Of a DNA stretch of 33,989 nucleotides, positions 4,896-28,122 are shown in pieces; position 1 is the first letter of the stretch; every line of letters begins with the position of its first letter. Both the position numbers and the translations under genes were made by a program. The DNA comes from Phoronis australis (lineage: Eukaryota > Animalia > Phoronida): contig NMRA01001255.1 in assembly GCA_002633005.1 (NCBI GenBank), positions 1 through 33,989 on the forward strand. Direction: 5' to 3'. The notes beneath the pieces are model-generated. The model saw nothing but the letters and a program-made list of their open reading frames with translations. It searched no databases and was not told the origin of the DNA.

Positions 4896-5100
4896 TAGTG
4901 TGGCTCAATGGTTTAAGCTCCGGACTCCTGTTTTTGAGGACTGAGTTCCAACCCTGACTTCACTGGTTCAATGGCTGACAATCGAGCATAGCACAAAGGT
5001 GTCTCCTATTCATCTGAGGTCGGTCTTACTTGAGAGTGTATACAAGTAGGTACATAGGAACCTCGATATAATGCAACAGCGATTGATGAGGCCGTGCTCT
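4896..5100 (+). mobile_element. tRNA-derived SINE, family 1, copy 1
   Basis: A box TGGCTCAATGG (4901-4911) and decayed B box GAGTTCCAACC (4943-4953). The body shares CCGGACTCCTGTTTT, CAATCGAGCATWGCACAAA and GAACCT.GATATAATGC with 21636-21860. Confidence 0.7.
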
Positions 5101-6762
5101 TAATGTTTATTACGATGGTAAAATGCTTAAACCGAAGAAATCAAATCGTTCATGTACTGCGTGAGCAACAGCAAGGGACGGGATTAGTTCAGTGTGAACA
5201 GACCTGAGGGTCTAATTTTTGTACACGATATCGAACTCGAAAATTTGTTGACATTTATACGCTTGTGCTAACTCCGGATAAATGTGGAGTAAAATATGGT
5301 TTAAGCATATCAGTTTCTAATCTACATGTATGTTCGCGATTGATGACCTGACGATTCGAGCTGCAGTCGACTAAAAACTCGAGATTCCGAGTAATATCTT
5401 GAAGTTTTGAGTTCAGACTCTAACTTTTAGCCTCAACGTCGGGATCACAAAGTGCGCTAAACGAAGATTAGACACCTACATGTATCTACCCAAGCCTTTA
5501 TTTGCTCGCGCATAGAACGCTGGACACACTTTCTGAGTTTGCGCAAATTAAAGTACATATAGAAAAGAAAATGACAAAATGATTTCTAGTTCGACTTAGA
5601 ATGCAAAGATTGGACCCTGGGTTTAATTTCCATATATTTAGAATGTTACACTTTACCAGCTAATAATGCGTCAAATTACACACAAACGGCTGTTAAGAGA
5701 AACATTGACTACTGTCGATTCTAGTCGCCTCGCAAGTCCTCCCATACATTTGGATGACGCACGCTGTTGTAATGGTCGACAGTCCACCCGCTGTTCAATA
5801 ATCATTCCAAAAACGGAGACACGTATGTTAGAATTTCTAATAGATGACGCAAATTTCGTAAGGTTTTTGCTTTGCGTACCGTATGGCCCTTAACAGCACG
5901 TCCCTGTCACAAAGACTGCGTCTACATGTAAGCTCTCACACGTATGTGTGCAAGCTGAATAACTCAATATACGGTACAATGTTAAAGATCTCCCAAAACC
6001 TGAAACGCTCTCAAACAAGGATTCCATGGTCTCCCATTTTGAAAAAAGTACATGTACTCAAAATACAAAAGCACACACACTTACTGTACAAGCGAGTCAC
6101 TCTTCTGTCCTGAGTTGTTATTAGCGACTGTTTTCTGCCGTTCGTAATACGTAACCATATTTATATGTCTGCGTGACGTTAAAAGTGCAGCACAACGTTT
6201 GATAAAAACATTAATAACATAATTAGTCCTGGGTAGAATTTCGTTATCACGTAAATTTCAAACCAAATATGATCACGTGATTTGCGGTAGAGTTCTTGCT
6301 TTTCTCACAAGAAACTAGGCTTAAGGAACAGAAACGTGGTTTATTCCCAACTTCGCCTGACGTCTACTCCTCGCTGATCATGACCAATTTCAGCTTACAG
6401 TGTACATGTGTACATCAGACGACTTTTCTTCTTGAAACTATCGACAACTAAAAATATTCTTGGTCATCGCATCAACTGACAAAAATTAGCAAACATTGAG
6501 TAGAACAAACAGTCTATTTTCGTTGACCTGGCCGCATTTAATTCTACTAATTACCAAATGTGTTTAATCAAGAAATTTGTGTTAAAGCAAATAGAACTAG
6601 GTGATTGTGTACAGTGTAATTGTGGTATCACACAGTTTAGTGTTTTTTTTACTGTGTAGCGTTAGAGTGCATTCGAGATTAATTGTAGGGCAAGTGCTTG
6701 GCAGGTAGTATGAAGACTATTGATATACTTAAATAGTTGAAGATATAAATATAAAAAATAAA

Positions 6763-7254: not shown

Positions 7255-7925
7255 AGGCAAAAATTATTGAGGGGTGGGGTAGAAACCAATTCAACTTCGC
7301 CAAACTACCCCCTTCCTATTGCCAGCACCCCAACCCCTTTCACCGGATGCCTCCATAATTTTACCAACCCCACGCCCTCCATAGTTGGGGGGGAATCCCT
7401 GGATGCAGCCTTCAGGATTTGAGTAACCTTGAACCAACAAAATTTTTCGGAGAGTAAGAATGGGTCTAGGGCCAGCGCAGTGACGGCCGGGTAGGTGGGA
7501 GCTGCCTCAAGTAACTGTAGCTGAGATCTAACAGTATGAAAATATGAAATTCCATAACTAGAGCTAGTCGTTGCTCAGGTCAGCTATGATTCACTTGAAA
7601 CAGGCTCGTACCTACAATGTTTCCTTCTGCGCTGGCTATAAGGAAAAGATTCATGTAATTATGATCCAGTTTCGTTAAAAGTTCATTTTATAATGACAGT
7701 TCTTTGAAGGAATTTTTTAAAGGTGAGCTCCCGAGGTCCCTGGTAGAGTGCCTTCAAGGCTGTTTCAGAATCCCTTGATGAATCACATCCGGTAGACCCA
7801 TCTCTGGTTGCTGGGGAAAATGATAGATGTCGTGACTGTCTCAAAAATGTACACAGTTCAACGCCTGGAGTTCAAATTCTGTGGAACTCTAAGATTCTGC
7901 GCGGGCCTTTTGCATGTTTACACCA
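7255..7925 (-). repeat. Old dispersed repeat (~650 bp), inverted relative to 33085-33720
   Basis: Colinear shared blocks: GCGCTGGCCCTAGACCCATTCTTA, TTTTGTTGGTTCA.GGTTACTCAAAT, CAAGTGAATCATA, TTCATCAAGGGATT, ACCAGGGAC.TCGGGA.CTCACCTTT, TCCTTCAAAGAA. Identity is roughly 70-75% by eye. Confidence 0.85.
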
Positions 7926-8020
7926 GCCAGTCATTATGTGCTCTGTTTGTGTAGTATTTACGCGACTGGTAAGCAAACGATTCAGTTTTAAAGAATTTGG
8001 ATTCATTGCGCAATACCATT

Positions 8021-8462
8021 GTGCCGGGTTGCATGAAACAGTCCCAAATAGGGACTCAACTAAGTTCCCTAAATCTTTTGCCTCTTTTTGTCTTTGTTTA
8101 CTTACAGATGCAATCTTTTGATATCATTTCATCTTCATTTTGAGGTCCAATTTGCATATTGACATTTTGTAAGAAATAAAACTAAAAACTGAGTCCAGAA
8201 TTCAATGAAAATAAATACATGTAGGCACTTAGTCCTTAAGTTAGGAGCGTTGCACGAAAAGATCCCTATATATTTTCGATAACATTGAGACTTCAACGTC
8301 CAGTTCACCCTCGATTTGTATCAAAGCCAAAAGTTGACTTAGTAATGAAACTAAAACAGCAGAAAAAAGGGCAATCGATATTTTCACAAGTCCAAAAATA
8401 CGCAGTGGATTTAGGGAACTTAGTTGAGTCCCTAATTGGGATTGTTTCATGCAACCGAGCAC
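8021..8462. mobile_element. MITE with 55-bp terminal inverted repeats
   Basis: 8021-8075 (GTGCCGGGTTGCATGAAACAGTCCCAAATAGGGACTCAACTAAGTTCCCTAAATC) matches the reverse complement of 8408-8462 at 51/55. The interior is AT-rich and non-coding. No clean TSD. Confidence 0.85.
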
Positions 8463-9255
8463 TGGAAACTAAAAAACATCAAGGAAGTGCAAAGGCAACC
8501 TTTCCAAGTTGATGAGAAATGAGCATAAATTGATTTATAAGTACTTAAACCTCTTTTCCCGCCTCCGGTTTCTGAATTTAATCCCACTAATCTAGCTCTT
8601 CATGTATGCGAAATTTAGGCGCATGCGCCAATATGCGAATCGCTTGGCTAAAAAATGTCGCAAAAAGGCATGGATGCATACATGTATATGTACAGTGTAC
8701 ACGTGTTACATGAGCCTAAAGGCTCGGCAATACGGTTAAAAGTCATGCATACTCTTAGTACTTAGGCTTTTAGATGCCCCTTTTATGATCACGGCATTGC
8801 GTTATGAATTTCATTCTTTTTGTAATCAGATACTCCTCTGTTGCAATTCAGTTTAATGTTGATGATGTTTGACCTTCTGATACGACGCGTTTTGATACAT
8901 TACGGAAGTGTGTGACATTATCAACAACTCTGTGTATTTAGTGGTGTAGAAAAATCAGATATCCTGACAAAACTATGAAAAACAAGCGTTGTGTGATATT
9001 TTCACAAGTCATTTCTTCATAACTTCATGGTCAGTTTATTGATTTAGTGCCAAAAATAACCGCAATTTGCCAAAATGACATACAAATCACCTTTGACTCA
9101 AGCGATGCTTCGTTCAACGTAACGTATCTCCAATAATTGGAATAGACAATAGCTTAAACCTCTACCTGCTCTTCCTCAATGTGTTACGCCTTGAACTCAT
9201 GTCTCTGTTTTCACATTGGAAGTAAAAACAACATAAATTCATCAAATTTACTCAC

Positions 9256-9474: not shown

Positions 9475-10602
9475 TTAACATCATGACCAAATTCTAATTA
9501 ATAAAAATGATCAAGATGATATCTCAAAAACACCGGAACGGTTTTTAAAACTCATTTTGTTTTTGTTTTTGTTTTATGCAACTTTTGATTTTTTTCATAA
9601 AAATCATCAGTGATCAGTTATTTGTAAGCATTTGAAAAGCATAAAGCACAGTTTCAGAAAAAAATAAATAATTCCTACCCAACGTTGTCACCCATCTCTG
9701 AGATAAGGATGTTCGGAATTGTCAATTTTGGATGTTTTTCTACAGTCCTACAAAAAATTAACGCCAGTCACAGACATGATAGATGTGTTAATTCAACATT
9801 GAAGGGCCTCAAATCAAGTTTTGCCTCTGGCCCCTAAATGTTTAGGACCGGCCCTGGGTAGCAGTCAATGGGAGGTGGTCCACTTCAGTGTAAAATGGTT
9901 CACCATTCGTTCCCCAAATCGTATGTTGCACGGTATATACTTGTCAGACCTACCTTCAAATAATTCAAAGCGGCTGTAAACCCATATTCCGTCGAAGTAA
10001 TTAAGTTTTGATTGAGCCCACTGATTGACGTATGACCTTTGACCTAAAGTTAACTTGTTCGTTGCTCAGATGAGAAGTGTATGATGTGTTTGGTTAGATT
10101 GGCAGGGCGCTTATACTGACACGCCATCACTAGCCAACTTATAGAACTATAAGCTTGGTACAAATCAATAAGGAGCGGTCAGTTCTTTCCATACCCCGAA
10201 ACCACCTCTGAGTTCACTACAGGACACTTTTGAGACCATTCTTTCGGTGAATGTTATTAATCAGATGTTGTCAAAGCCAAGTAAGTTTTTGTCGTAATCG
10301 GACAAAAAGGACATTTCTGCATACGAGCCATTTTTAGTGAGCACTTATTGCTAATCAGACAATGGGCACATTGGGAGAGTTCACGTTTTTCAACAAAAGA
10401 TGCATTCACGAAAACTAATTCATGTTTTTCTTGGAGGATCTGATGCCAACGCCTTCCCAAGCAGTCAATGTTCTATTGTCCAACAGTTCACTGCTACAGT
10501 CTCGTTTTGATGATGATGGAAATTCAAACTCGCAACCATCGATATTCATGAGAGTGATAAATGAAGCAACAAAAAGACAATTGATGGTCGCTTTGACAGA
10601 TT

Positions 10603-10608
10603 TTTATT
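10603..10608 (-). terminator. Polyadenylation signal AATAAA of the defensin-like gene
   Basis: TTTATT on the + strand, shortly downstream of the predicted stop in exon 4. Confidence 0.5.
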
Positions 10609-10653
10609 TTGCCTTAGTCGTCAATACATTTATATGGCATCCATGTCGTTGAC

Positions 10654-10664
10654 CTACCAAGTCG
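10654..10664 (-). CDS. Probable terminal exon 4 coding part (adds S-T-W-stop)
   Basis: Strong acceptor TTTATTTTCAG| at 10665 with an upstream CTAAC branch-like motif. The phase-1 join gives TCG ACT TGG TAG, and AATAAA lies ~45 nt after the stop. An alternative acceptor at 10979 cannot be excluded. Confidence 0.55.
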
Positions 10665-11349
10665 CTGAAAATAAAGTATTAAACGTTAATTAATTACAGC
10701 CGTTAGAAACTCGAGCAGAAAATGAAAGACACTTGAGCTGAGTACAGACTGTTGGAGGTAGAGAGGCGAATTTGCAAAATTCATTTCAAAGTTATACATG
10801 TAGTTTTAGTTAGTGTAATGGATTTCCGCCAACATTGTCGACTTGTCCAGTGAGATGAAATCATCGATCACAACTTATGGAAATTAATCCGAAGTAATTT
10901 TGTCGACTTTGCTACGCCGCCAGGCTGTTTCTATCGGCACAAAATTTGTCGTCCTTTGTCGATTTCCACAGACGAAAACTGAAAGAAGTTGAATCTCTTT
11001 GAATAGAGACGGAGACAACAAACTTGAGTTATCTGACTCGTGATCCAAAGCCTTGCAACTTTCGTCCATGAACATAGAACGCGCGAACCAGTCAGTCATC
11101 GCTCCCCAGCAGAAGCAGAAAAGCGGCTCTAAAATGTCGGAAAAGTAATTTTGCAAAGAATTCCATTTGTTGTGATTTATGATTTTTCATCCAGTTATTC
11201 ACTTGGATGAGTGCGTGGAAACCTTCACCGTCTGTAATGTCCCCGTGTTTTTCGGGTCAAGTTAAGTAGGGATAACGATGAGCAAAACATAATAACTACA
11301 AGTTTTAACTTTGGAATAATTTAAAAATTATTCCAAATTCCCTGACACA

Positions 11350-11864
11350 GGGGACCTAATCTCCAAGTTCAGACTTGAACTCATTTATCTAAGTTCTCGA
11401 AATCGTTTGCGTACTTGAGACGTTCATAACTCACATGGGTAATCTCTTTCTATCACCTTCTCTTTATCATGAGCTCTTTCTGATTCATGACAAGCTCTGG
11501 CAATATTACTAAAATCGAGTCTTTAGTTCAGTGAAAATAAGTAGAGGCTAAGTCCGAAATTTGGGGCGTTGCAGTAAATTAACAGTTCTCTACTTATGTT
11601 CCATAAAATTGAGAAGTCAGCATAGAATTCAATCTCGTTTTGCATTAGGAATAACACTAAAACGCCATAAGAATGGACAATACATGTAAGTGTTTCCACA
11701 AGTCCACAACTCGGCAGTAAATTTAGGCCGAAACTCGCTGGAGTTCTAATTGGGTCAGTTTCACGAAGGCAATGGGGCATTTGTCCCAAATTGTCTTTCA
11801 TCGTCAATATCTCGCGTAACCTCGTAAAATCTCGGTTTTTCATCGAGCTCCTTGCGTTAATTAA
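11350..11864 (-). pseudogene. Decayed L1/Tx1-like LINE apurinic endonuclease remnant (second copy ~14290-14946)
   Basis: One frame (with stops) gives, in order, LINARS, RLREIL, CLRETD, SYGVLVLF, YCNAPN, VIERDYPC and MSSSLNL. These resemble the APE-domain motifs SLNVRG, KRxxIF, CLQETH, SxGVAIL, IYAPN, IxGGDFNC and LNLxD. Confidence 0.45.
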
Positions 11865-12361
11865 CTCTACCCAGTGTTGGAAAATTAGAAACCAAGCCCT
11901 TCAGTCATAGGTGTAAGATTTGGAAGGATCTTATTCAGGCTAAAACGGCACAGTGGGCTCTGCTCTGTGATTTGAAAACTGATGCGGTGATACGGTATGC
12001 ATGTAGTTTTACTTTATAGAAGTCACATAATGCGTTGAAGTGGTGCGCGATTTTTTCCAGTATCGGCGATCCAATATTCGGTGGTACTCTGATCGACCGG
12101 AGTTGATTGCACTCGTGGCCAGTCGTGAGGTATTGGGAGCTGACTGCGACCCAAAACCACACCACTTGCAACTAAAGAAGTGACGATTCCTGCTAAGGTA
12201 CGTTACATTAGTTTGTGTAGCTTTTGGATCAAAAAGTGTTAAAATTGTTGGGGTTGGGCGCTGCCTTCCTTTAAACATTGAGGCGCAGTTTTCAAAAAAG
12301 TTTAGTCGCAGACCAGATCCAAAAATTCTATTTTTTGGAATTTGCATACGTTTTTACTTAC

Positions 12362-12490
12362 AATCGAGACATTTGCAGAATTCAAACCCGAATAAGTTGC
12401 TGCAGTACCCGCCTTTCCTATGCCCTCCTTCTTTGCATCTTTTGCGGCATTTCCTCCCATTACAAGATCTGCGGAATCTTTGTAGGGCAT
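12362..12490 (-). CDS. Exon 3, copy A: furin site plus CS-alpha-beta defensin-like domain, (D)ALQRFRR-SCNGRKCRKRCKEGGHRKGGYCSNLFGFEFCKCLD
   Basis: Acceptor CTATTTCAG|, 129-nt phase 1-1 exon, donor T|GTAAGT. It has the same six-Cys framework as copy B, an RFRR site and net charge about +6. It is read in a different frame from the ORF-track call 12302..12490. Confidence 0.85.
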
Positions 12491-14087
12491 CTGAAATAGA
12501 GGGCATTATTCACGTGTAAAATACATTCGTACTTCATTCCATAGAACTATAGCCCTGGAATACCAACTGCAATCTCGTGGCCGTTGACGATGCAAAGCGC
12601 ATGCGAGAGAGTTGCTTGCTTTCACTTGTTCCGTTGTGTGTACTTGCATGCTCTGGAATCTACTATCACTTATGCTTTTCGCATCTCCCCCATTTTCAAC
12701 GGAATTGCAAAAGAGCCATATCACCAGAAAGCCTTTTGCCATTCAATGATGCCTATACCAGAATTCATAAGTAATTATCATTTCGCATACATGACTGGTT
12801 TAAAATATTTTTTAATTCTAAAAACCAAGAGTGTTACCAAACTTCGACAAACAACAGCGTGTAATAGTAACATAAACAGGAAGTGAACCAGAGAGGTTAT
12901 AAAAATGACTAGTTAAGCCATTACAGAAAGAATTTGAATGATTTAAAAGATTTCTTCGATATAAAAATAAAGGTTTAGAATATGGATCCCTCACATCCAT
13001 TGTGGATAATTTAGTCAGGCACTTATCCAAAATTATACATTTTTATGTATTATAATTAACTGAACCTTTTTTGGAGTTTGATACAATTACATTCTTCAGA
13101 AAAATTTGTATTGAAGTAACATTTAAGAAAAATATGGTAAACTACTCCAGGTATATATCCGAAAGTTGCTGATAAAGGTTGTTTGATAGATAAAAATGGG
13201 GAAAATCTACCACAAATCTTTGAAATGCACGGTTTATACATCACCATATTAGCTGCGGTGTAGGAATTCCCATAATAACTTAAAAATAAATTCTTTTGTT
13301 CAGAATATGAAAGTTTGTGATCCTGATACATACATGTACACTGTATATTCTATGTTACCGTAAACAAGAGACATTGGAACACGTCTTTACGATTGTTATT
13401 TTAGTAAAGGCAGTGGAGTCTAGTCATTGACAATATTCATAAAAAGAAACAGTGTTATTTTGAACACCTGTTGTATAGTTGTCAAGGTCAACATTAATGA
13501 ACGAAAAAACGGAACAGTTGGATTGAAAAGCGGTACTTCATGATAAAAAGCGAGACACCTGGGTCTAGGCCAAAACGTAAGGATGAAATGTTCGCTGCAA
13601 CCATAGACTATCGTGAGTACATGGACCACCAACTCCATATATTTTCAATGGACGAAATCTATGATCTTACGCATAAGCCGTGACGTTATTATTCACTAGC
13701 GACACCTGACAAAATCAGCAAGTATTACTTCCGGCAAGCATGGTTGGGTGTTCGGCCACACAGGCGAAATGTAAAGGTCTAAGTTTCCACAGCAGTGACG
13801 TTTGAATTACGCAATTACATGACCAATAGCATTGCCAAAAGTACTTCTGCTATTGGAGGCTTTGAACAGCGTTTCAGCAAAGTACATGCGAGCATTTCGC
13901 GGAAACTAAAATTGGTAATTTAGGAGGGTGGCGCCGTCTCTAGGATGATTTGCAAGAAAGCGTTGGGGGTTGCGAATCTATTGATCTATGCTGCAACACA
14001 CAAACGTGCAGAACAGGAGATTTAACACCCAAAAAATCTCGACCAAGTTGCACAAATAAATTATCATGAAACAAAAATTATTAAAAN

Positions 14088-15778
14088 CTAAAATGTCGGA
14101 AAAGTAATTTTGCAAAGAATTCGATTAGTTGTGATTTATAATTTTTCATCCAGTTATTCACTTGGATGAGTGCGTGGAAATCTTCACCGTCTGTAATGTC
14201 CCTGTGTTTTTCGGGTCAAGTTAAGTAGGGATAACGATGAGCAAAAAATAATAACTACAAGTTAAATTATTCCCAATTCCCTGACACAGGGGACCTAATC
14301 TCCAAGTTCAGACTTGAACTCATTTATCTAAGTTCTCGAAATCGTTTGCGTACTTGAGACGTTCATAACTCACATGGGTAATCTCTTTCTATCACCTTCT
14401 CTTTATCATGAGCTCTTTCTGATTCATGACAAGCTCTGGCAATATTACTAAAATCGAGTCTTAGTTCAATGAAAATAAATAGAGGCCTAGTCCAAAATTT
14501 GGGGCGTTGCAGTAAATTAACAGTTCTCCACTTATAACAGCTTATTATTTAAAATGACTTATTCTTATTAAAATGACATAGGCAAAAAATTGAATTTCGG
14601 ACCTCAAAAGTGAGGCCTCCTATATTAATATAGGAGGCCTCGCCGAAGGGAGGCCAGAGAGCGGGGTTCCTCTATATTAATATGGAATGCTCCGCCGAAT
14701 TGAGAAGTCAACATAGAGTTCACTCTCGTTTTGAATTAGTAATAACACTAAAACGACATAAGAATGGACAATAAGTGTTTCCACAAGTCCACAACTCCGC
14801 AGTAAATTTAGGCCAAAACTCGCTGGAGTTCTAATCGGGCCAGTTTCACGAAGGCAATCGGGCATTTGTCCCTAATTGTCTTTCATCGTCAATATCTCGC
14901 GTAACCTCGCAAAATCTCGGTTTTTCATCGATCTCCTTGCGTTAATTAACTCTACCCAGTGTTGGAAAAGTAGAAACCAAGCCCTTCAGTCATATGTGTA
15001 AGATTTGGAAGGATCTCATTTAGGCTGAAACGGCACAGTGGGCTCTGGTCTGTCATTTGAAAACTGATGCGGTGATACGGTATGCATGTAGTTTTACTTT
15101 ATAGAAGTCACTTAATGCGTTGAAGTGGTGCGCGATTTTCTCCAGTCTCGGCGATCCAATATTCGGTGGTACTCTGATCGACCGGAGTTGATTGCACTCG
15201 TGGCCAGTCGTGAGGTATCGGGAGCTGACTGCGACCCAAAACCACACCACTTGCAATTAAAGAAGTGACGATTCCTGCTAAGGTATGTTACATTAGTTTG
15301 TGTAGCTTTTGGATCAAAAACTGTTAAAATTGTTGGGGTTGGGCGCTGCCTTCCTTTAAACATTGAGGCGCAGTTTTCAAAAAAGTTTAGTCGCAGACCA
15401 GAACCAAGAATTCTATTTTTTGGAATTTGCATACGTTTTTACTTACAATCGAGACATTTGCAGAATTTCAACCCGAATATGTTGATGCAGTATCCGCCTC
15501 TCCAATACCCTCTTTCTTTGCAACTTTTGCGGCATTCCTTCCTATTGCAAGATCTGCGGATTCTCTGTAGGGCAACTGAAACAGAAGGCATTATTCACAT
15601 GTAAAATACATTCGTACTTCATTCCATAGAACTATAGCCCTGGAATACCAACTGCAATCTCGTGGCCGTTGACGTTGCAATGCTGCAACACACAAACGTG
15701 CAGAACAAGAGATTTAACACTCAAAAATTCTCGACCAAGTTGCACAAATATATTATCATGAAACAAAAATTATTAAAA
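14088..15778. repeat. Duplicated segment copy B (X' plus Y'); lacks the 1.39-kb A-only segment and carries a ~153-bp B-only insertion
   Basis: Begins CTAAAATGTCGGAAAAG, identical to 11129. It is colinear with copy A at a few percent divergence outside exon 3. Confidence 0.95.
15447..15575 (-). CDS. Exon 3, copy B: furin site plus CS-alpha-beta defensin-like domain, (V)ALQRIRR-SCNRKECRKSCKERGYWRGGYCINIFGLKFCKCLD
   Basis: Acceptor CTGTTTCAG|, 129-nt phase 1-1 exon, donor T|GTAAGT. Cys spacing is C-x4-C-x3-C-x10-C-x8-C-x-C with a GGYC gamma-core. An R-x-R-R convertase site precedes the mature peptide, whose net charge is about +6. The phase matches exon 2. Confidence 0.85.
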
Positions 15779-15797
15779 ACAGTAATAAGGCAAACAC

Positions 15798-15800
15798 TCT

Positions 15801-15831
<31 letters not shown>

Positions 15832-15860
15832 GAGCACACGCGCGCGCGCAAATACACACA
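15798..15860. repeat. (CA)n/(CG)n compound microsatellite
   Basis: Directly visible alternating purine-pyrimidine tract. Confidence 0.9.
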
Positions 15861-16870
15861 TTCACACTTACATTTAGCTAAGCAATTATGAGTAATTTTT
15901 CAAAAGTTCCGTAAACACATCTACATAGATATATGTATTTTAGGGCCTAAACATTTTGCTTAGGCCAAATGTAACTTATTTCCGCAAAATACTGTAAACA
16001 TGATTTTTAAGTCCTTATATCAAAGTATAATTTAGTTCAAAATCTTAAAAATATGTATCAAATTAAGTAATATGTAGCATAATGTTCACATCTTGTCTGT
16101 TATCAAACTAAAAGCCTTTTTGAGCACAATTTTTCTCCTCTGCCGAGATCAGAAAATCGAATATTTCCGTTTCCTATCGTGACCTAAATTCCTTTGCCGG
16201 TTCAGGAACGATTCCTGAATAACGGACATGTTGTCCTTGAAAACGTACATTGTATTGAGATCACCGTGAGCGTGAGCGTTGTTATTTTGTCTGGTTGTTT
16301 TTGATTCTCATTTCGGTTCTTTTTATACAAACTTGACTACCCGGACGTGTGAGCGCAGTGCGTACGTGGCAGCAAATAGGCAACGGCTTTACTGGCCGTT
16401 AAAAATGTTAAAAAAACATCCATACACGGCGATGTTCAACAAAAAACAAGTGTTACCACAAAAGAGTGAGCCTCACATCTCAGTTGTAATAACGAACACC
16501 TGTGCTTGATTTTGTTGTCAGGACACAGTAACCGGCGGCGTGACTCTTCGCTGGGAAAATAATAACTTGTTAAATTGGCTTTGATTTCCAGTTATTAGGG
16601 ACAGTATACATGTATTTCAGAACCTGACAAAAACTTACAATATATACCTCTGGGCCAAGCTGCATAAAAGTTATACGCCGTAAAGGAACAATGACCTCGC
16701 ATTATCACGAGTCACGTTGTTATTGTTGAACAATGCCTCTGACGTCATTGTCATTAAACAATCAAACTTATCAAGCGGACGTGACGGGTCCAGTTATATT
16801 TATATAGCATGACCCGCAATGATGGGTCGAGTTATATTTATATAGATAGAACCATCAAGGTAGGTGAAGC

Positions 16871-16899
<29 letters not shown>
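16871..16899. repeat. (TA)n microsatellite at PLE 3' end
   Basis: Directly visible. Confidence 0.95.
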
Positions 16900-16903
<4 letters not shown>

Positions 16904-18080
16904 CGTTGAAAAGTAAGCTGTTCTTTGCTTTAATTAGTTTGTACAACAAACTTTCGTAGTGTCTACACAAGTGTCTTTCATCAGATGGTAGTTGATATAA
17001 TAGATCGCCCAGTGTAAGTGGCATCACAAACACATATATATGAGTAAATATATAATAAAACTCTGTACAAAACATATCATAATAAAACAGTAGCGGTACT
17101 TCGACTATACATCAGTCATCAAAGGCAAATAAATCTAAAAATTATCAACGCTATCGTGTATGATACATAAAACAAGAACAATGACATTAAACACAAATAT
17201 AAGGTTGCATACATAAGAGCGCAATTACAGAAGGAATTGTCATGGAAACTAAATTAAACGTACACTGTACTATGTAACATAGTAAAATTTAATAAAATAC
17301 ATAGGTGAAACAACTTATGGACATTATTTATATAACGACAAGGTACGATGGAACCCAGTGTCTTGAGAATTTATGTAAGGTGTTTCAGTTTTTATTATTA
17401 ATGCTTCAAGTATTTTCAAACGAAAGAGGTCACGTTCGAAATACCTGACGATGGTATTATCAACAATATCTGAACGAGAAATTTTCTGTTTGTGGAGTGT
17501 TTGGAAGTGATCTTTAATTGATCCATTCTGTAAGTGCATAGATAACCGGCGAGATAAAGTGCAAGTTGTATAACCAACGTACCTTGAGCAATCAGTGTTT
17601 GAACGAATACATTCGTTGTGGGGACAATTGAACTGATAAATCAAGTCAGTTTTGGCTAACACTCGGACAGACTTTGAGCACATATTGTTTTTAACAACAA
17701 GATCTTTAGTTTTGTGGTTTTGGTAATATATAATTAATTTAAAGCTGTCTTCTGGCTTAACGGTCTTAACATTATTATGGATGATCCGTTTTAAAACTCG
17801 TTCATCTTCAATATAACGTGAATGGAATTGGTTGCGGTAGAATAGTTTTTTGGTACAACCACTTGCTTGTTTTAAACACATAGGCTTCTGCAACTGGCTT
17901 ATGAAAAGCTTCACATTCTCATCAACAAACTTATTGCTGTAACCGTTATTTATCATAATTTGCTTAATGCGATTACACTCGGTGTTGAAGGTTTTCCAGT
18001 CTGAGCAAACGGAATATGCTCTTTTCAAAAAGCTTGTCAAAACAGAGACTTTATATCTCAGAGGACATTGGCTAGTTTCG
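16900..18080 (-). mobile_element. 5'-truncated Penelope-like retroelement (PLE) with C-terminal GIY-YIG endonuclease
   Basis: An ORF encoding the RT thumb/linker and GIY-YIG domain is followed by a ~420-bp 3' region ending at (TA)n. The 5' end is cut at the (TACATA)/(TA)n tract. Confidence 0.9.
17324..18076 (-). pseudogene. PLE ORF C-terminal fragment (RT thumb, linker, GIY-YIG nuclease)
   Basis: SQCPLRYKVSVLTSFLKRAYSVCS...NNGYS is typical of the PLE thumb region. LIYQFNCPHNEC...YVGYTTCTLSRRLSMH...SIKDH...LKILEALII...INSQ supplies the GIY-YIG motifs including the conserved R, E and N. The RT core is absent and the TTG start in the ORF track is not a true start. Confidence 0.9.
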
Positions 18081-18082
18081 TG

Positions 18083-18160
<78 letters not shown>
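18083..18160. repeat. (TACATA)n/(TA)n microsatellite at PLE 5' end
   Basis: Directly visible. Confidence 0.95.
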
Positions 18161-18161
<1 letters not shown>

Positions 18162-20351
18162 CTGGACTCATCACGACGGATCTACACTACTGCAATAGGT
18201 GACAGGTCCAGTTTATAGATAGACCCATCCCGAATTTGGTGTCCCCAGTTACAAAGAGAGACTTCGCTGATCAACATTTACCGACAGGTGTACCCACCTA
18301 TAATCATATTTCATGTAGAAACACATATCTTTTTGTGGGTGTCCCCATTTTAGTCCTTGAAAAGCAAAAATTTACCAGATAAGAAAAGTTAAAATAATTA
18401 AAATTAAATAAGAAGCTGTTGGTAGCTCTGTGCAACTGGACCCTCTGATTGTCTAAATATAAAAATTCCACGACGAGAAATTATTGCGGTATTACGAGCA
18501 TGACGCGATATCTTTTAATCTCTTTGTCACACGAATTTCACTTATTCCTGGCCTGGGTAGCTAATTAATGTGTTCATCATGCTTGTGGAACACAGATGTC
18601 CCTGCACGACAGGCCAGGCTGTCTGGGCGGTGGGCCAGATCTCATAGCATTCACTCTTGTGAGTACTTTGGGGGGGGGGGGCAACCTATGTGACTACAAA
18701 ATACACTTATATTTCAAATTCCAAAAAGTTCCCACGTCTACCCTTGCACATTTTTTTAAGAAAAGTTGTTTTTGTTGCAAGAAATATTACGCACATTCCT
18801 GCCACTTGGTGGCACTTTTCTATTAAATTGACCTACATGTACCAAAGAGCCAGATTGTATTGTTGTGCACAGCAACTTAAATATGGCAGCTCCCATGGAT
18901 AATTCAAGGTTTCTCAAACAGCACTAAATTTTAATACCCACAACCTGAAGAAGCTTAGAGAAGCATCATGACAAAAGTTGATTGATTATGTGTATCAGAA
19001 CAAACGAAAAAGAACGATGTGTCACAAACGTTTGTGCAGGAAAACAGTTGCTTTGCCCAACTGGCTTATACACTGCAGCATGTTCTGCTTATACTACTCT
19101 AGAAGACTAAGCGTCATAACTAAAATTGAAAAGGCATAGAAACACGCATAGCAACGTTTCAAAACATCAACAGTAGTAATAAAGCTGAAGCTGCCGAAAG
19201 TGACACAGTTGTTACCCAAGATTTACCATGAAAATCAATTAGATTTGTAAAATATGAAGCACCAAATTAACCTGAAATTCATACATTCTGACACATTAGT
19301 GCATCATTTGCGAGCAGGAAAACTATGTTATGGGTCATATTTCAAGAAAGAGAGAATGAGGCAACTTTCTATAGCTTTGAATATAAAACAGGTTTGTGTG
19401 TTTTTATTGGGTACATCTTAGTGTTTTCGATGTGTGCTTAGTATTTTCACCAGTTCTTGTTTAGCTTGTTCAGTCCCTTAACGTTTCAGGCTGTAGACAA
19501 TAGTGCTGTCTCAACTGGCCCAGTAGAGAAGGTGGCCATGTCATAGGTTCTCCATATGCCGGACGTTTTTCGGCACATTTTGCATCACACTGATTGAACA
19601 ATCGAAGTCATGTTGCTTTAAGATTGAAAGTACCTTTTGAGCACTAGAAGGATGACTTAGGGGGCCGTTAGTTTCTTTATATTTTCCTAGCTTGAACAAA
19701 TACTCCTGAAATCCTGTTTTTCAAAGAGTTCGTCATTGCCCAAATTGAAAATCGACCATTTTTACACTGATTGCGTCAGGGGATAATCGTATGGCGTTAT
19801 ACTGTGGGTCTGATTTTAAGCACTTTAAATCAAGCGTTTTTGGGGAAGGTTAAAGAGAGTAAATGTTGCAATGAACTGTTAAATCAACGTGCGCAAGTGT
19901 ACCTCATCCCCCTCCGTAATCCTGGAACAGGGGCAACTTCTTCTGAATTTTTTGCAAACTGCAAACATTAATTACTTAGGTAGTTGCAATGGTACCTAAA
20001 TTAAAATGCCCGACTGGCCGGCGTCTCCGTAGTAATCTGAGGACGGGGGAAGCCCCTGCCCATTTTGTCAAACGTTCTGCAAACATATTGGCTATGGTAT
20101 GATCATCTGATTAAAAAAATAAATTTCAATATCTGCATTGGTACATCAGCGGACTCATTTTCAGTCGCATCAATTAATCTTATTGGACACGGTCAAAATT
20201 TTTAGGCGACAGATCACTGACAGACCGCTCCTTAATCTGTTATGCTAGTTTTTGATAAATTTCCGATACATGTAAGTCTGTCTGAAAAATGTGCATACCA
20301 GCACCCTGGTAGTTGAATGTTAAATCAGTGATACCAGTTTGCATTTTTCAG

Positions 20352-20500
20352 ATGGATTTGCATCGCACAGCTGAGTCCGGAGACATGAATATGCAAATGA
20401 AATTCAAGGACAGAGACCTTGTGGCCAAAGAAACCAAGTACGACCGGTTATATTATAAAAATAGAAATACAAAGACGAGGAAGAAGAAAGAATCCAGTTT
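20352..20500 (+). pseudogene. Possible decayed DNA-transposon protein fragment (Academ-like motif)
   Basis: KFKDRDLVAKETKYDRLYY resembles the DLxAxEAxYHxxCY motif recalled from invertebrate Academ-type transposase proteins. The key H and C are mutated, and the family assignment is from memory. Confidence 0.3.
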
Positions 20501-21635
20501 TCAGTAATGTTTTTCTACAGTTTTGTTTGGAGTTCATTCAAATTTTCTAACACACAATTCAATTCGGTGCTTTGGCCCTAAAGAAACCTGTTTTGTTCGC
20601 AAGCACATCGTTGTCACGTTCTCACGTAGGACTGCATCTGGGCCAGGTGAGAAATTTCCGTATCACGGTCGAATCGAATCATTTTGGACAGCCTTCATAA
20701 TTACGAACGGCCAATACACAAAAGCTTGCAATGAACCTTTGGTCACTGTTTGTCTTGTGGTCGAGCCCAGGCCCGTGTCAAACTTTGCGCAGGGGGTGGT
20801 TGAAATTTCTTGCATTAAAGCCCTCAGTTGACGCAGCTTAATCAGGGGAAGTAAATTTGTATACACAACAATGACTCTCAGCTCTATGTTTTTGAGATGA
20901 GACGGAATTACAATGAAGTAATACTCCGAGATGAAGGTGAAGTGGCGGTTGCTCAAAAATAACAGGACTCAATTAGGATGTATTGTGGTCAAAAACGTTC
21001 TCGCTTTACTTCCTGCCAAATTGTCAAATCGGGCATGTTTAAATGACTGATTACACCTTCTTGGACAGAATTATTCAGTCGGACATTGACTCGACGAAAT
21101 TTGTTATCTAGTTATATTTTTGCGTGTTAACGTTATTGCATTTTAAAAAATATGGAATGGGAATATTGATGAATTATAAACCACGATACATTTGCATCAA
21201 ATCCATGTCAAGGTCGCATCATTTCACAGCGGGGCTGAAAAGTTTAGGACCGCTACGCCTGAACTTCACCCACTGGAACCATGCACACGGGGGGTCGAAA
21301 TTAATGTAGTTACTGTAGCAGGTTACCATGCCCCTGCCAGTCTTCGCATAGTCAGTGAGCCCAATTCAGTCTTCTATATTATAAAACCGTTGGTCGCCGC
21401 AGCCCGGACCCATGCCTCAGATGTTGCCCCTAACTGATAATGATTTGTTATATACAGTAGATTCAAGATTCACGATTGGCAGTGATTGGAACCGAGCTCA
21501 TGTGTAAACAATGAAAGCCATGTATTTAGAGCTAGTGAACTTTTGCACAGCCTTTGATAGTTACTAAATGGTCACAAATACGGTAATTTATTCATGTTTG
21601 TTACGACTCATTAGCAGACAATCAGACTAATGAAC

Positions 21636-21860
21636 TGTGTGACTCAGTGGTTTGAGGTCCGGACTCCTGTTTTAGAGCGACCCGATCGAGTTCGAATCAT
21701 GGCTTCACTGACAGCCAATCGAGCATTGCACAAATGTGTCTGCAACTTCTCTGATCTCTTTCTTACTAATGAATACATGTACATGTACATGTACGTGCAA
21801 GGGTGTGAATTAGAACCTGGATATAATGCGAAAGCGACTCCAGGGGCTCTGCTTATACAT
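21636..21860 (+). mobile_element. tRNA-derived SINE, family 1, copy 2
   Basis: A box TGACTCAGTGG (21640-21650) and B box GAGTTCGAATC (21688-21698). Homologous to 4896-5100, with an internal TACATG expansion. Confidence 0.75.
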
Positions 21861-23380
21861 GTAAATTGAGAAAAAAAATAGGTTTTGGAATTGTGGACAT
21901 TCGAAATACTGAGTAAACTTTCGAAGATGGCGACAATTCGGAGTGGCGAACCTTCGGAATTGTGGCATCTAACCTTGAAAATCTTTTCCATCAAGTCAGT
22001 TGCTCGTATGAACTCGTGAGGCTGTGCTACACTGACACTAGTCAGAAGAGAAGTCTATCACCATTGCCGGAACAAAGTCTTTATTGTGTCTAGACCTGCT
22101 TTCCCCCAAAAATGTGAAGGTGCTCTTCGGTAAACCTTTTCTCAGAGCAAGCAAACACGGTTATAGTTAAATTCTGAGCAACGACGGAAGGCTGCCTTGT
22201 GTTAATTTACCGTCGCTTTCTACTGAATTTAAAAGAACGGAAACGCACACACGTGTACACGCATGCATGTGAATCCACCAATCCACAATCGAATTCAACT
22301 CTATATGAAAATATACCTGTATTTGGCAAACATTTCCAATTCCAAATTTGAAAACGCCTGCCCTTTACCGTACTATGCTAGCAAAAAATATTAGATAACA
22401 AACCTATGTTGTGTTGTTTTGTTTCTTGTTCGATTTTAAGGCATTCACACCTCACTGTGACTTTTTGGGAGCTCTCTCGCTGCTACTGTGTATACCTTAG
22501 CTAGGTGTACACATCTACTTCTTTATCCCCTTGTTTGCCTACGGTGTAACCACCACTCGTGTTCAATGCCGATGAGTAACGTAAAGCCTCGGAGGAGTCC
22601 TCCAATCGTATGCACGATCCTGTCATCTACATGTATGCAAATACCACTCGGGCGAAGCTGGCCGGGTACTGCCCGATTATTACATGAAGCGCTTTGAACC
22701 AGAAGCAAGTTCAAAATTATTACTAACTTAGTTAATATTGTAGTTAGTAGTACCAGTAACTGCAACTGTTTTGTTGTTGGCATCTGTATCATATCTTTAA
22801 CGGATAGGCTGGGGGTGGACCTTTTCCGCGGGGGGATTCGTTCGAACCCCTCCTCTAACCCCCTGGCTAAAGGCCGGTGGTCTCAACTCATATTATGGAT
22901 CTTGAATTACCTTCAAAACAGTCATTAATAAAAATCCCATATGACTTTAATTTGTCAGAAAAGACCATATGCCAAACGGCATTCGGACATGGGACTCCAT
23001 ACGTCCTCCGATATTACCGTTTACGTCTGGCTTCAACTTCGGAATGATAAGTGACAATTAACAACTGCCAAAGTGTATCTCGGGGTACAGTTACACCTTT
23101 GCTACGCACTCCTGATGCATAAACCAATAACCGTCCATCTGACCTGAACCCGAGACTTGTTCTTCAACAAAACGAACCACTTCATCAAAATCAAACATAT
23201 TTTACGGCGCCGAAGTCCTTGAGTCGTTAAAAACACGTCGCAATTGCAATGTGCTTAGTGACACTCCAAAACGACCCACGAGTACCTTTATTATTACATT
23301 TTGAGTCAGTCCTAGCTTGAACAAATCAACAATATGCTTGTTTCGGTTCTCCATTTTAATTTGAAACTGAGCAGCAACCT

Positions 23381-24443
23381 CGATATCGTAACTCTAGCGA
23401 TAGATTTACTAGAGTTACTAAGAATATCGATAGAGTTAATAAGTCTTTCGATAGAGATAGAAAGTCGATCGACAGCGATAGTAAGTCTATCGATGGAATT
23501 AGTAACTCTATCGATAGAGTTAGTAAGTCTATCAATAGAGATAGTAAGTCTATCTTTGAGTAAGTAAGCCTATTAACAGAGATAGTAAGTCTATCTATAG
23601 AGATAATAAGTCTATCGATAGAGTTGTAACTCTATTCATAGCGATACTAAGTCTATAGATGAAGTTAGTAAGTCTCTTGATACAGTTAGTACGTCTACCA
23701 ATAGAGATACTAAGTCTATCGATAGAGTTACTAAATCTATCGATAGAGATATTAGGTCTGTCTATAGAACTAGTAAGTGTATCGATAGAGAAAGAAAGTC
23801 TATCGATAGAGTTAGTTAGTCCACCAATAGAGTTAGTAAGTCTATCAATAGAGATATTAACCCTATCGACAGAGTTAATAAGTCTATCGATAGAGTTAGT
23901 AAGTATGTTGATAGAATTAATGTATATCGATAGAGATAGTAAGTCTATCGATAGAGTTAGTAAGTCTATTGATAGAGATAGTAAGTCCATCGATAGAGTT
24001 AGTAAGTCTATCGATAGAGTAATTTAGTCTATCGATAGAGTTGATAATTCTACCGACAGAGGTAGTAAATCCCTCAAAAACGATAGTAAGTGTATCGATA
24101 GAGTTAGTAAGTTTATCAATATAGGTACGAAGTCTATCGATAGAGTTAGTATACCTATCAATAGAGATAATAACCCTATCGACAGAATTAATAAGTGTAT
24201 CGATAGAGTTAGTTAGTCTCTTGATGGAGATAGCAAGTCCACCGATAGAGTTAGTAAACCTATCGATAGAGATATTAACCCTATCGACAGAGTTGATAAG
24301 TGTATCGATAGAGTTAGTAAGTCTATTGATGGAGATAGTAAGTCCATCGACAGTGTTAATAAATCTATCGATAGAGTTTGTAAGTCTATCAATAGAAATA
24401 GTAAGTGTATCGATAGAGATGGTAAGTCTATCGATAGAGTTAG
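23381..24443. repeat. 21-bp minisatellite, consensus AGTAAGTCTATCGATAGAG(T/A)T, about 50 units
   Basis: Clear 21-nt periodicity. The consensus unit contains the 12-bp palindrome TCTATCGATAGA, and GAGTTA/GAGATA variants often alternate. This array explains the LSIELVS/SIDR heptad ORFs. Confidence 0.97.
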
Positions 24444-25097
24444 CAACGGAGAAAAAAGTTGTTGTGCCGTCCTTTTACAGCCACCGTAGGGTCAAGCACT
24501 GCATGTATACAACTACATGCACATGCAAAAAAAGACTTTAAACTTTCTCTTCCAAGAAATGCTTTAGAAAGCTTCATTTCACTGCTGTTAAGCTGTCATT
24601 GTCGTCCTATTATCAGAAACGTTTTGGTGTTTTGAAACAAGACCACGCTCGTCTTATCTTGGATTGTGAACTCAAATCACCATCAATGCATACATGCATC
24701 GTTTTCGAAACCGCATTTTCAAGGTTTCCAAACCCCAATAATCTCTGAAACGTTTTTGATTGGTTGATTTGTTACGATATTCTCGTTGGTAGCGGAAATA
24801 AATTTCCAACGCGGTAAGAATTATTCTGAGACCGGCTTGACGAGAATGAAAGTCCTAATTCAATTTTTAGCCAACTATACCGTAGGACGAAATGCAGTTT
24901 TAAATTTGAAGTGTTACCAAATTTTTCCACGTCGGATCCTAGACCAGACTCACGTTCTGTAGACGTAACAAACTCACGAAAACGCAAAACTTCGCAAGAT
25001 ATCGCCAGACGGTACAAGGATTGCACGTGATCACTTTCAATTTATTGCGAAACACTTGGGGAACATGGCCCAGAGCACTGACAGTTTTTGTTCTCAC

Positions 25098-25179
25098 CTC
25101 CGTCTCCGCCATCTACCGACAGCGCCTGGAGGCAGCCCACAGCCAGCATCAACACAAGGAATACCACGACGCACTTCAT
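25098..25179 (-). CDS. Exon 2 coding part: signal peptide plus start of propeptide, MKCVVVFLVLMLAVGCLQA-LSVDGGDG (phase-1 end)
   Basis: Acceptor TTTCAG| at 25193, exon starts 25192, ATG at 25179. There are 82 coding nt (27 codons + 1) ending GAG|GTGAGA. The N-terminus has a basic residue, a hydrophobic core and a small-residue cleavage site (LQA), typical of a signal peptide. GC content is higher than in the flanks. Confidence 0.85.
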
Positions 25180-25940
25180 CACTTCTAGTTTTCTGAAATA
25201 CAGTCTCAGACCAAGTTGATACAAGTATATAAAAGGAGAAACAAGTACATGCATATGAGATTAAAACAAACTGTGAATAAGCCATAGTAAATCTTTCTCT
25301 CATCTATATAACAATTACCCTTCCGTATTATCTGCAAACACTGTGTCCCATAGGTTTCTAAAAAACAGTGCAGGTGGCCTGATGTCATTTTGGGTGCATC
25401 AGATGTGCGCAGGCCTCATGGTTGGACCCATTGCTAAGAACCGTTAAAGAATCAAGTATCTTCACGCGTCTCTGCGAATTACCTTAAACTCCATGTTGTG
25501 AATTGCAGATTTTGAATTTATACTGGTGACAATAAAAAAGTAAAGCCCCCCCCCGAGCCTGTTTCGTTTTGCTCCAACACTGCTCTTCTTTGTCTACAGT
25601 ATTGTTTTACGATATTTGTTTTACATCGTGTGTTGGTGCAACGAGCTGACACTTCCACATGTATACTAATATTTAATCCAGAATCACAGGTTTTCACATT
25701 TTACAAAACAAATTCTTCGTTTTGATAAAGACAAGTGAATTGTTGCATGACCAGTACGCGGCACCCTATTGAACGGCTCTCTTATATTCACTGCGTTACA
25801 AAGCGTCGTCTTATTACTTTGAGAAACGATCTTCCTCCTAATGGGACCTTCGTCCTTTCTAACGAGTTTTAACGAACTGGTAGTGTTACTGGCTAGCCTA
25901 AAACTATGCAGCCGTACGCAGTGAACATTAAATTACTTAC

Positions 25941-25972
25941 CTGCTTAATCACCAGTGCTGTGTATGCAGTAT
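25941..25972 (-). other. Exon 1 (non-coding 5'UTR) of the defensin-like gene
   Basis: Starts at the Inr, contains no ATG and ends in AAGCAG|GTAAGT. The intron (25940-25193) ends at TATTTCAG, just before the signal-peptide exon. Confidence 0.7.
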
Positions 25973-26090
25973 GGAGCAATCCTTAAACTATGCTCGTTTT
26001 TATAGCCCTTTAAGTCCCTCCTCCACCTTTTGATTGGTGGATATTTGGAACATCACTTCTAGTCTGGGTAATGCATTGTTTAACCAATCA
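25968..26090 (-). promoter_or_regulatory. Pol II core promoter of the defensin-like gene (CCAAT box, TATA box, initiator)
   Basis: Minus strand reads CCAAT (26037-26033), then TATAAAAA (26004-25997), then CCATACT matching the Inr consensus YYANWYY with the A at 25972, 32 nt from the TATA T. A second, oppositely oriented CCAAT is at 26084-26088. A perfect CAG|GTAAGT donor follows at 25941/25940. Confidence 0.75.
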
Positions 26091-26714
26091 TACATCATAT
26101 TCTTGTCTTGAATGATTGATCATTTCCATGACGTTATGTTTTCGTAAAGTTTGCCTCTGGTTCAAGCCTGTCACCCAAGCGAAAACCCACCTACATGCTG
26201 TATTGTCAAACGTATGCGCTTAGCTGCAAATCGTTCATGTGTGGGACTACAGCATAAGCTGCAGTATATACATGTACATGTACTGTACAAGTAAGTCGGC
26301 CATGTTCAGAGATAGCTTTATTGGGTTTGTCGTTTGGGACACTTGGCGCACCGAAATAAATAAGTAATTACAAGCTGGTTCAAACTGCATCAAGAGTAGG
26401 AAAGTTTGTGGTAATTACTGATACAAAATTGGCTATCTATTGAAAATAAAGATTTTATATGACCTCGTTCATTTTGGAAAGCGTATAAACCTATCATTTC
26501 TTTATAGTGGTTTATGCTTTGAAGCGGCAAGAATAAAACGACCTGTCATTCAGAGGGCGCGTTGTGTGTTGTGGCTATTCATATTCTATGCACCTTACAG
26601 TCCGTTAGGTGCAAGCGAGTTGGGTGATTCTTATTTTGTTTTATAAATCTGTTTTGGAAAATCTCGGGGAAAATTTTGATTTATCGAAGATTCTGCCAAT
26701 TTTGAAATGTGTAT

Positions 26715-28122
26715 AGACCCTATTCACGCCGACAGGAGGCGCGTTCCAAAACGAGGCTCGCTACGATAGCTCTGTTAGCTTATCGTCATAGGAGTCTGTG
26801 TTTCAGTCCGTGTTGTTCCCCGAACGGCTAGAAAAAATACGGACACGCTTCACAATCTCTAAAGACGTTGCCATACGCCGACGAAGCAAAATATGTCCGT
26901 GTAAAATAAATGTTTTGGAAAAGTTAGATCATATTTTGTCGCGTCTCGGTCAGTTGTCAAGCATCATAGTAACGACTGGAGAATGGGCCAGCCAGGTTGT
27001 ATTTTCATGACAACGGATTTAGGGGGGGGGNNNNNNCCCTCTCAAAAATATTGAAATATCACGCGAAATTCCCCCCACGAGGCACAAAAATTCCCCTAGT
27101 GAAAAATCTCTCTGAGTTCACATAACCTGTAACCACACAGGTGACAATTTTTAAGAGCACAAAAGGCTACTTTAAAATGAGACAGAGCCTATGAGAGCTT
27201 GCAACAGGGCGGGGGTGCTATTGATGGTGATCGGGAGGTAGACTGTTCCCGCCCTCACTCGGCGAAAAAATCGCCTCTCAGTAGGCACTAGCAACGTGGG
27301 CCTTTCCCCTCGGATGAACGAGGTTTCTACAGAAACATGATAACTATGATTTCATTGTCCAGTTAACTGAAATTGAGTTCTAAAACGAGGTTACGTTTTG
27401 GACGAACGAATTAGGTATTTTAATTTTAAAATTCAACTTGGTCCAAATTGATACTTGAAATCTAACACATGAAATAGACGTAAGAATTATTACAACCAAG
27501 AAAGCAGAATTGATGGTCAAATAATTTTTATTTTCAATTACGATTCTGGTTTATTATTTTAATAAAAATATATCTAATAACATCAATTATTCTTTCAGAT
27601 CAATGACAAATCAACTGTTAGTCCCAGGGAGTGCATAGGATCAAGCTATGCTTGATTTTAATATTCTTGATCAACAAATTAAACCAGATGTGACTAATTG
27701 CACATGACAGCCACCACTGTCGAATATGTCTTCAACTCGTCAACAATACGAGCAGATGACCTGGTCCGCGTAGAAAGTATTTTGATCAACATTTTACAAG
27801 AAAAAAGTAACCTGCATTCAGCATAATACCTAATCCGTAACACTACGATCGCCGCAATTTGGTCATATTTACTTTTCATGTTTCGAACCTAGTTTTCCGA
27901 GAAAAATTAAACCCTTTCGTCAGACAATTCTTTGACGCCTTAACTTGTTCTCTAATGTAATTTTCTACGTCTGTGTGGTTTAATTGTTGACACATTATTA
28001 AATTCAATATCCAGGTTGGACTCGAAAGACCGGCTATTTAACTCACGCAATGTCTACTTTCGCTTTGTTTATCGCAGTCAGCCTCGCTTTGGATTTTAAT
28101 GTCTGCCGCGTGAATAGAGTCT
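26715..28122. mobile_element. Non-autonomous TIR DNA transposon, ISL2EU/PIF-Harbinger-like
   Basis: TIRs AGACCCTATTCACGC (26715-26729) and GCGTGAATAGAGTCT (28108-28122) match at 14/15 and are each flanked by AT (26713-14, 28123-24), consistent with an AT TSD. No intact ORF. It contains an N gap at 27031-27036. Confidence 0.65.

Follow-up and report, generated by a model that had tools for sequence, protein, structure and literature searches.

A spliced and expressed gene for a defensin-like cysteine-stabilised alpha-beta peptide, with a core exon present in two copies that are probably alleles

Does the minus strand of contig NMRA01001255.1, a stretch of 33,989 nt referred to below as the window, carry between positions 26004 and 10590 a hidden gene for a small secreted peptide, and what kind of peptide would such a gene make? 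An earlier note on this DNA had proposed a multi-exon gene of this sort with a cysteine-rich product. We consider it almost certain that the locus, termed here gene 1, is a real and expressed gene for a precursor of the cysteine-stabilised alpha-beta (CS-alpha-beta) type. The whole model, in which four exons encode a 73-residue precursor that would be cut by a furin-like protease into an antimicrobial CS-alpha-beta defensin of net charge +6, and in which the two core exons are likely alleles, appears probable to us.

A recheck of the sequence bore out the exons, splice sites, phases, TATA box, and polyadenylation signal of the proposed gene. The putative TATA box (TATAAAA, 25998–26004) is the sole TATA in the 120 nt preceding the GTAAG donor at 25940, and this donor (GTAAGT) ends exon 1 (25941–25970), a non-coding part of the 5' untranslated region (UTR) with an approximate 5' end. 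Exon 2 (25098–25192) has its ATG at 25179 and contributes 82 coding nt for a predicted signal peptide, recognized by inspection, and the start of an acidic propeptide; its computed hydropathy peaks at 3.54 over 11 residues, and its phase-1 donor, GTGAGA, is spliced in RNA. The core exon, exon 3, is present as copy B (15447–15575), the acceptor of which is spliced in RNA, and as copy A (12362–12490), which has the same content, differs from B at 17 of 129 nt, and is probably the other allele. Both copies are 129 nt long and of phase 1-1, are bounded by polypyrimidine-CAG acceptors and GTAAGT donors, and encode the end of the propeptide with an Asp-rich spacer (by inspection), the RxRR cleavage site, and a six-Cys core. 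Exon 4 (10590–10664) supplies the final three codons and the 3' UTR, with the stop codon at 10656–10654 and AATAAA at 10608; it has a strong acceptor in a phase compatible with exon 3, and an exon 3–exon 4 junction at 10664 is predicted from the sequence. With a single Cys exon the coding part amounts to 82 + 129 + 8 = 219 nt, that is, 73 codons, in agreement with the RxRR-containing precursor of about 73 residues proposed before. The mature peptide after RxRR would comprise 38 residues, 35 of them from exon 3, and this exon-3 part has 9 Lys and Arg versus 3 Asp and Glu and a Cys spacing of 4-3-10-8-1 in copies A and B alike.

Transcription of gene 1 was assessed with RNA data under a single species label, namely three raw runs and a contig set (X1–X4), which were mapped on positions 10200–26400 at 88% likeness, with 18–19% of each raw run read and 15 of 20 splice joints listed. 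These data were chosen by their label; a run search for positions 12200–12700 listed no RNA run. The joint 25098>15575, predicted by the earlier note, was read exactly in six reads, four with three different starts in X1 and two with two starts in X2. The joint skips 9522 nt with ends CT..AC, and the first mate of every such read lies on the plus strand, as most stranded libraries would give for an RNA of the minus strand. The exon 4 region (bin 10200–10740) is covered at low depth and in the correct orientation in three of the four runs, and X3 contains a transcript of the family with a 5' loose end of 21 nt, 17 of which agree with exon 1 (counted by eye); this lends indirect support to a real exon 1 that would start approximately 30 nt beyond the TATA box. 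Against this gene structure it must be counted that one of three junctions was seen, with six reads in total and none in X3 or X4. The remaining predicted junctions were absent among the 15 joints listed; the depth over the exons is below 2, hence this absence is no counter-evidence. Expression of gene 1 is low.

The reads on the signal exon come mostly from other genes, being for the most part 90–95% alike and then running into unlike sequence, with loose ends at 25101–25197. The 30 letters listed for each loose end, beyond which any Cys core would lie, were translated by eye: the one at 25101 (1148, 2051, and 2680 reads in the three raw runs) reads VALQRTRR, the one at 25112 (543 reads, listed in X3 only) reads DVALER, and the one at 25108 (88 reads, X1) reads GVDIQER, the counterpart in copy B being VALQRIRR. 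Because these loose ends read as related propeptides, at least three further members of the family are transcribed, one of them several hundred times above gene 1. No loci for these transcripts were found in the window. Alleles of gene 1 were considered as the source of the abundant signal-exon reads and rejected, the 5' UTR differing right up to the ATG, and at 88% likeness the most abundant relative mapped to neither core exon.

The assignment of the peptide to the CS-alpha-beta class begins with its cysteine pattern. In six frames, the CS-alpha-beta pattern with GxC matches the window three times, each time on the minus strand, versus no match in 300 of 300 order-3 Markov simulations, and a looser form of the pattern had one match in 5 of the 300; since the GxC pattern was never reached in the simulations, the match is not due to chance. 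AlphaFold2, given exon A alone and no alignment, predicted a helix at residues 11–20 and strands at 26–32 and 35–41 with a mean predicted local distance difference test score (pLDDT) of 81.9; four of the five models reached at least 78.8, and a three-row alignment gave 82.1. The class is defined by CX3C on a helix, CXC on a strand, and six cysteines (PMC5308243). In the predicted model Cys14 and Cys18 lie in the helix and Cys38 and Cys40 in the strand 35–41, so that CX3C is on the helix, CXC is on the strand, all six cysteines are present, and the single helix rests on a two-stranded antiparallel sheet. The disulfides of the CS-alpha-beta fold connect C1–C4, C2–C5, and C3–C6, and three disulfides may likewise be expected in the gene 1 peptide on the basis of the fold matches.

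Comparison of the exon A model with 48,161 chains by VIA-align returned 39 at Z of at least 2. The top 11 are all defensins or scorpion peptides, among them BmBKTx1, navitoxin, plant defensins, termicin, drosomycin, nasonin, and eurocin, and they are tied within 1 Z unit (Z 4.4–3.5, root-mean-square deviation (rmsd) 0.9–2.7, 30–37 residues aligned). The motif claimed from the letters is thus matched by a predicted helix and hairpin with CS-alpha-beta peptides as the closest structures. A profile built from the three Cys exons of the window, including that of the neighboring gene 2 described below, placed insect defensins best (E 2.4e-4 and 4.8e-4).

Several search results weigh against the assignment of gene 1 to the defensins. 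None of the 48,161 chains reached Z of 5 or more in VIA-align, a low Z being expected for 42 residues, and no Foldseek match was obtained at E of 0.001 or less, the best rows being plant, bacterial, and fungal defensins. Defensin_2 was not listed for copies A and B at E up to 10 (gathering cut-off 20.4), and the best Pfam rows were all below cut-off (SLR1-BP 18.0/22.7, Defensin-like 12.8/27, and Myticin-prepro 11.4/28.5), which agrees with the statement of the earlier note that no family could be named. The top single rows of both the fold and the language-model searches are scorpion short toxins. In addition, no BLASTP alignment was obtained between the signal exon of gene 1 and that of gene 2. 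Myticin was rejected on its cysteine pattern and score, and big defensin was rejected for want of a CC pair and for its different spacing. A search of PDB sequences with copy A gave six rows at E of 10 or less, all of them at 0.2 or above. Homologues were found neither for copy B versus longer proteins, nor for the three-exon alignment versus proteins of 20–74 residues, nor for copy A versus 1.84 billion representatives. This is weak evidence, as a control search with a retroelement from an intron of the gene returned 77 matches, all labeled ena, jgi, or lgn and none NCBI, and animal proteomes therefore look thinly covered.

A shared fold alone shows no function, and the earlier note had left the choice between an antimicrobial peptide and a toxin. 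An antimicrobial role is likely. The precursor would enter the secretory route and lose its signal peptide, the short acidic propeptide would hold the peptide, and a furin-like protease would cut after RxRR and free a 38-residue peptide of net charge +6. This cationic, disulfide-locked peptide could then bind the anionic bacterial envelope, acting through lipid II, which oyster defensins bind (PMC3390580), or by membrane damage at a higher dose.

That the peptide targets ion channels, whether in predators, in parasites, or in the host itself, as a short scorpion toxin would, is improbable by our estimate, even though several features of the peptide speak for it. The n-loop is short, with four residues between Cys1 and Cys2, and an Asn stands two residues after Cys4 in both copies; the closest folds are BmBKTx1 (Z 4.4, rmsd 0.9, 31 residues aligned) and navitoxin (Z 4.1, rmsd 1.0, 30 residues aligned), and Toxin_2 heads the rows of the Atlas language-model search at 0.80, all Atlas rows being below 0.9 and thus leads only. 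However, plant and insect defensins tie with these two folds, Toxin_2 is unmatched for copies A and B in Pfam at E up to 10, and Atlas puts the same toxin cluster first (0.81) for gene 2, which passes Pfam as a defensin, so that the search does not discriminate. The signature of K+ channel toxins (KTx), Lys-Cys4-Xaa-Asn, lacks its Lys in both copies (PMC8252768, where some toxins block without the dyad), gene 2 has neither the Lys nor the Asn, and there is no sign of a venomous organism. Because the KTx signature is only half present, the antimicrobial part of the earlier proposal is the likelier one, and the toxin part loses ground.

Some plant defensin-like peptides serve as recognition or signalling ligands, and a fast-evolving ligand of gamete or self recognition would be in keeping with the fast allelic change described below and with the best Pfam row of copy B, the pollen-coat family SLR1-BP (E 0.0039, below cut-off). 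Yet the peptide is strongly cationic and adjoins a Defensin_2 gene, and one relative is abundant in all three raw RNA runs; we give this ligand role very little probability and retain the antimicrobial one.

The two Cys exons had been read by the earlier note as alternatives, spliced to 15575 or to 12490. In the self-BLAST of the window, the region of copy A (11129–14086) is repeated as the region of copy B (14088–15778), and the position between them, 14087, is a single N, the sole isolated N in the window, which stands exactly at the A/B junction and is probably a scaffold join. The letters at the end of copy A before the N are those at the end of copy B, and the letters at the start of copy B after the N are those at the start of copy A. 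Such a layout is expected when the contigs of two haplotypes overlap but are placed one after the other in a scaffold without being merged. The introns of the two copies differ at 57 of 1409 positions (4.0%), as compared with a reported heterozygosity of 3.2–4.2% in lancelets, older assemblies of which contain false duplications (PMC10013865). Since the N sits exactly at the junction and the intron divergence matches lancelet heterozygosity, copies A and B are likely, judging from these sequence features, to be two alleles of one exon duplicated by the assembly, and the reading as alternative exons probably falls. A point to be set against the allelic assignment is that the match between divergence and heterozygosity presumes a lancelet as the source of the DNA.

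If the duplication were true instead, B and A would be separate exons of a single gene, spliced in as alternatives or jointly, and a B+A transcript would be in frame, both exons being of phase 1-1, and would yield two defensin domains separated by RxRR. In both copies the splice sites and the frame are intact and all six cysteines are present, which agrees with such a duplication; divergence after it would explain the 12 altered residues of the mature peptide, and fungal defensins with two domains exist (PMC4165938). We nevertheless hold it to be rather unlikely, because the sole isolated N in 34 kb stands exactly at the junction, whereas the junction of a true tandem repeat should be unique sequence that can be assembled, because a CA microsatellite begins in copy B 12 nt past the point where copy A stops, and because the intron divergence equals the heterozygosity reported for lancelets (PMC10013865). 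A single N can thus make two alleles look like alternative exons. Copy A has a private insertion of 1393 nt (12599–13987) and copy B one of 153 nt (approximately 14535–14690); both attract repeat-like RNA reads, consistent with haplotype-specific mobile elements. A run of six Ns inside a G/C homopolymer at 27031–27036 suggests a short-read assembly.

Taken as alleles, the two copies pose a further question, as their exons differ far more than their introns do (17 of 129 nt, or 13.2%, vs. 4.0%; Fisher p 6.6e-5). In the 42 codons of exon 3 there are 13 non-synonymous and 3 synonymous changes, and 12 of the 35 mature residues are altered, while the six Cys, RxRR, GGYC, and the net charge stay constant. 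The non-synonymous rate (13/102) is higher than that of the introns (p 5e-4), and the synonymous versus intron divergence gave p 0.076. Selection arising from host–microbe encounters may have caused this divergence; in oyster defensins selection acts on surface charge (PMC3390580). What speaks against selection is that the proportion of non-synonymous differences (pN 0.127) equals that of synonymous ones (pS 0.125, from 3 synonymous changes in 24 sites), and a ratio of non-synonymous to synonymous rates (dN/dS) above 1 was tested for within exon 3 and not shown.

The same equality would be left by gene conversion of one allele by a paralogous exon, which raises synonymous sites like non-synonymous ones; moreover, the excess divergence ends at the exon borders, and several paralogues are transcribed. 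On the other hand, the synonymous differences number only 3, the most abundant relative aligns with neither core exon at 88%, so that no close donor is in view, and a constant net charge maintained through radical swaps fits selection. Old balanced alleles and gene conversion by a paralogue both fit the divergence of the core; conversion in place of selection is, in our judgment, a possible but less than even explanation. Should A and B indeed be alleles, 12 changed residues in 35 versus 4% in the introns would offer a clear-cut opportunity to test whether an antimicrobial peptide is under selection, and as two natural variants they are directly assayable.

Paralogues had been suggested as a target for tblastn, and this search found a third Cys exon in the window at 3283–3165; beyond it and copies A and B, tblastn and the pattern scan revealed no further Cys exon and no second last exon in the window. 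The exon belongs to a second, predicted gene, gene 2 (6165–3099, minus strand), which has the layout of gene 1 minus the tail exon and comprises 68 codons. The sequence suggests a TATA box at 6165 and a probable non-coding exon 1 (6085–6165, donor at 6084), followed by an exon for the signal and acidic propeptide (4412–4529; ATG at 4499, 88 coding nt, a phase-1 donor, and a hydropathy peak of 3.29) and by the Cys exon (3099–3283) with a basic cleavage site, the stop codon, and AATAAA at 3099. A signal-like match at 3874–3821 was rejected as a GTT-rich stretch. Gene 2 passes Pfam Defensin_2 with 28.8 bits versus a cut-off of 20.4 (E 1.2e-6). Its core has the spacing 4-3-9-5-1, with the same 4-residue n-loop as gene 1, and is identical to copy B at 14 of 35 positions in an alignment that includes RGG.C; its mature peptide is nearly neutral (3 Lys and Arg, 2 Asp and Glu). 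Genes 1 and 2 form a small cluster within a larger expressed family, and gene 2 could be identical with a reported lancelet defensin gene.

Gene 1 is a divergent addition to the known CS-alpha-beta superfamily. With the Defensin_2 (PF01097) defensins eurocin, plectasin, sapecin, oyster Cg-Def, and mussel MGD-1 it shares the same six cysteines with CxxxC on the helix and CxC on the strand, and with eurocin an aligned GG.C before Cys4; a signal, an acidic propeptide, a basic cleavage site, a cationic product, and a gene cluster are also common to both. It differs from them in having one residue before Cys1, a short n-loop, a long hairpin, a separate phase 1-1 exon for the core, and a three-codon last exon. 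The N-terminal GFGC that we take to mark the plectasin type is not present. With the scorpion Toxin_2 K+ toxins (BmBKTx1, cobatoxin) and navitoxin the peptide has in common the compact fold, the short n-loop, and the Asn, whereas it lacks the signature Lys and possesses an N-terminal propeptide with a furin-type site.

Phase-1 introns near the end of the signal and introns in the 5' UTR are common in CS-alpha-beta defensin genes (PMC5308243). Defensins of this fold class have been described in lancelets: a Branchiostoma floridae CS-alpha-beta defensin (XP_002596529) and orthologues whose c-loop is interrupted by a phase-0 intron (PMC4165938), the B. floridae genes being grouped with classical insect-type defensins; insect-type defensins of amphioxus (PMC11116330); and, in B. 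belcheri, two genes for arthropod-like defensins (PMC12373286). In contrast to the B. floridae genes as described, genes 1 and 2 have all six Cys on one exon, and the c-loop intron is absent. Two other secreted antimicrobial precursors of lancelets are the big defensin BjBD, with the pattern C-X6-C-X3-C-X13/14-C-X4-CC and a hydrophobic N-terminal domain, and BjAMP1, the signal, anionic region, and RR site of which resemble the layout of gene 1 and the mature form of which is a 21-residue helix; as far as their available text goes, PMC6015868, PMC4683396, and PMC10608444 cover only these two.

No description of the gene 1 peptide was found in titles and the beginnings of abstracts, a scope outside which subscription papers fall, including Zhu et al. 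2014 (PubMed 24425781). We would suggest only tentatively that the locus represents an undescribed and expanded family of short-loop defensins, invisible to Pfam and shaped like scorpion toxins, with a swappable core exon and an ancient balanced polymorphism, in a basal chordate (the taxon being presumed). In any case, the two genes and at least three further transcripts add a previously unrecognized defensin-like set, most of which would escape an inventory based on Pfam; should the source be a lancelet, the chordate repertoire of the CS-alpha-beta fold would be widened beyond a few insect-type genes.

The window as a whole has 39.5% G+C, a CpG observed/expected ratio of 0.91, and 34 occurrences of TACATGTA versus 2.0 expected. 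This motif is typical of lancelets, though it also characterizes acorn worms and some molluscs, and judged by it a lancelet would be a probable source of the DNA. The 9.5-kb intron of gene 1 contains on the minus strand, at 17324–18070, the 3' fragment of a retroelement (a reverse transcriptase tail and GIY-YIG) that is presumably Penelope-like; many of its 77 homologues carry PF26215 and some PF00078 or PF01541, one is named a GIY-YIG endonuclease, and the fragment is flanked by (TA)n and (TACATA)n repeats. A partly self-complementary 21-bp minisatellite at 23410–24443 (49 copies, 74% matches) gives rise to long spurious open frames on both strands. Inverted repeat copies at 7255–8594 and 32845–33719 are 69–78% alike and are probably the remains of a DNA transposon, the former containing an inner piece with 77-nt inverted arms (8021–8097 and 8386–8462). 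A short dispersed repeat at 4898–5030 and 21637–21767, with 72% likeness between its copies, resembles a short interspersed nuclear element in appearance.

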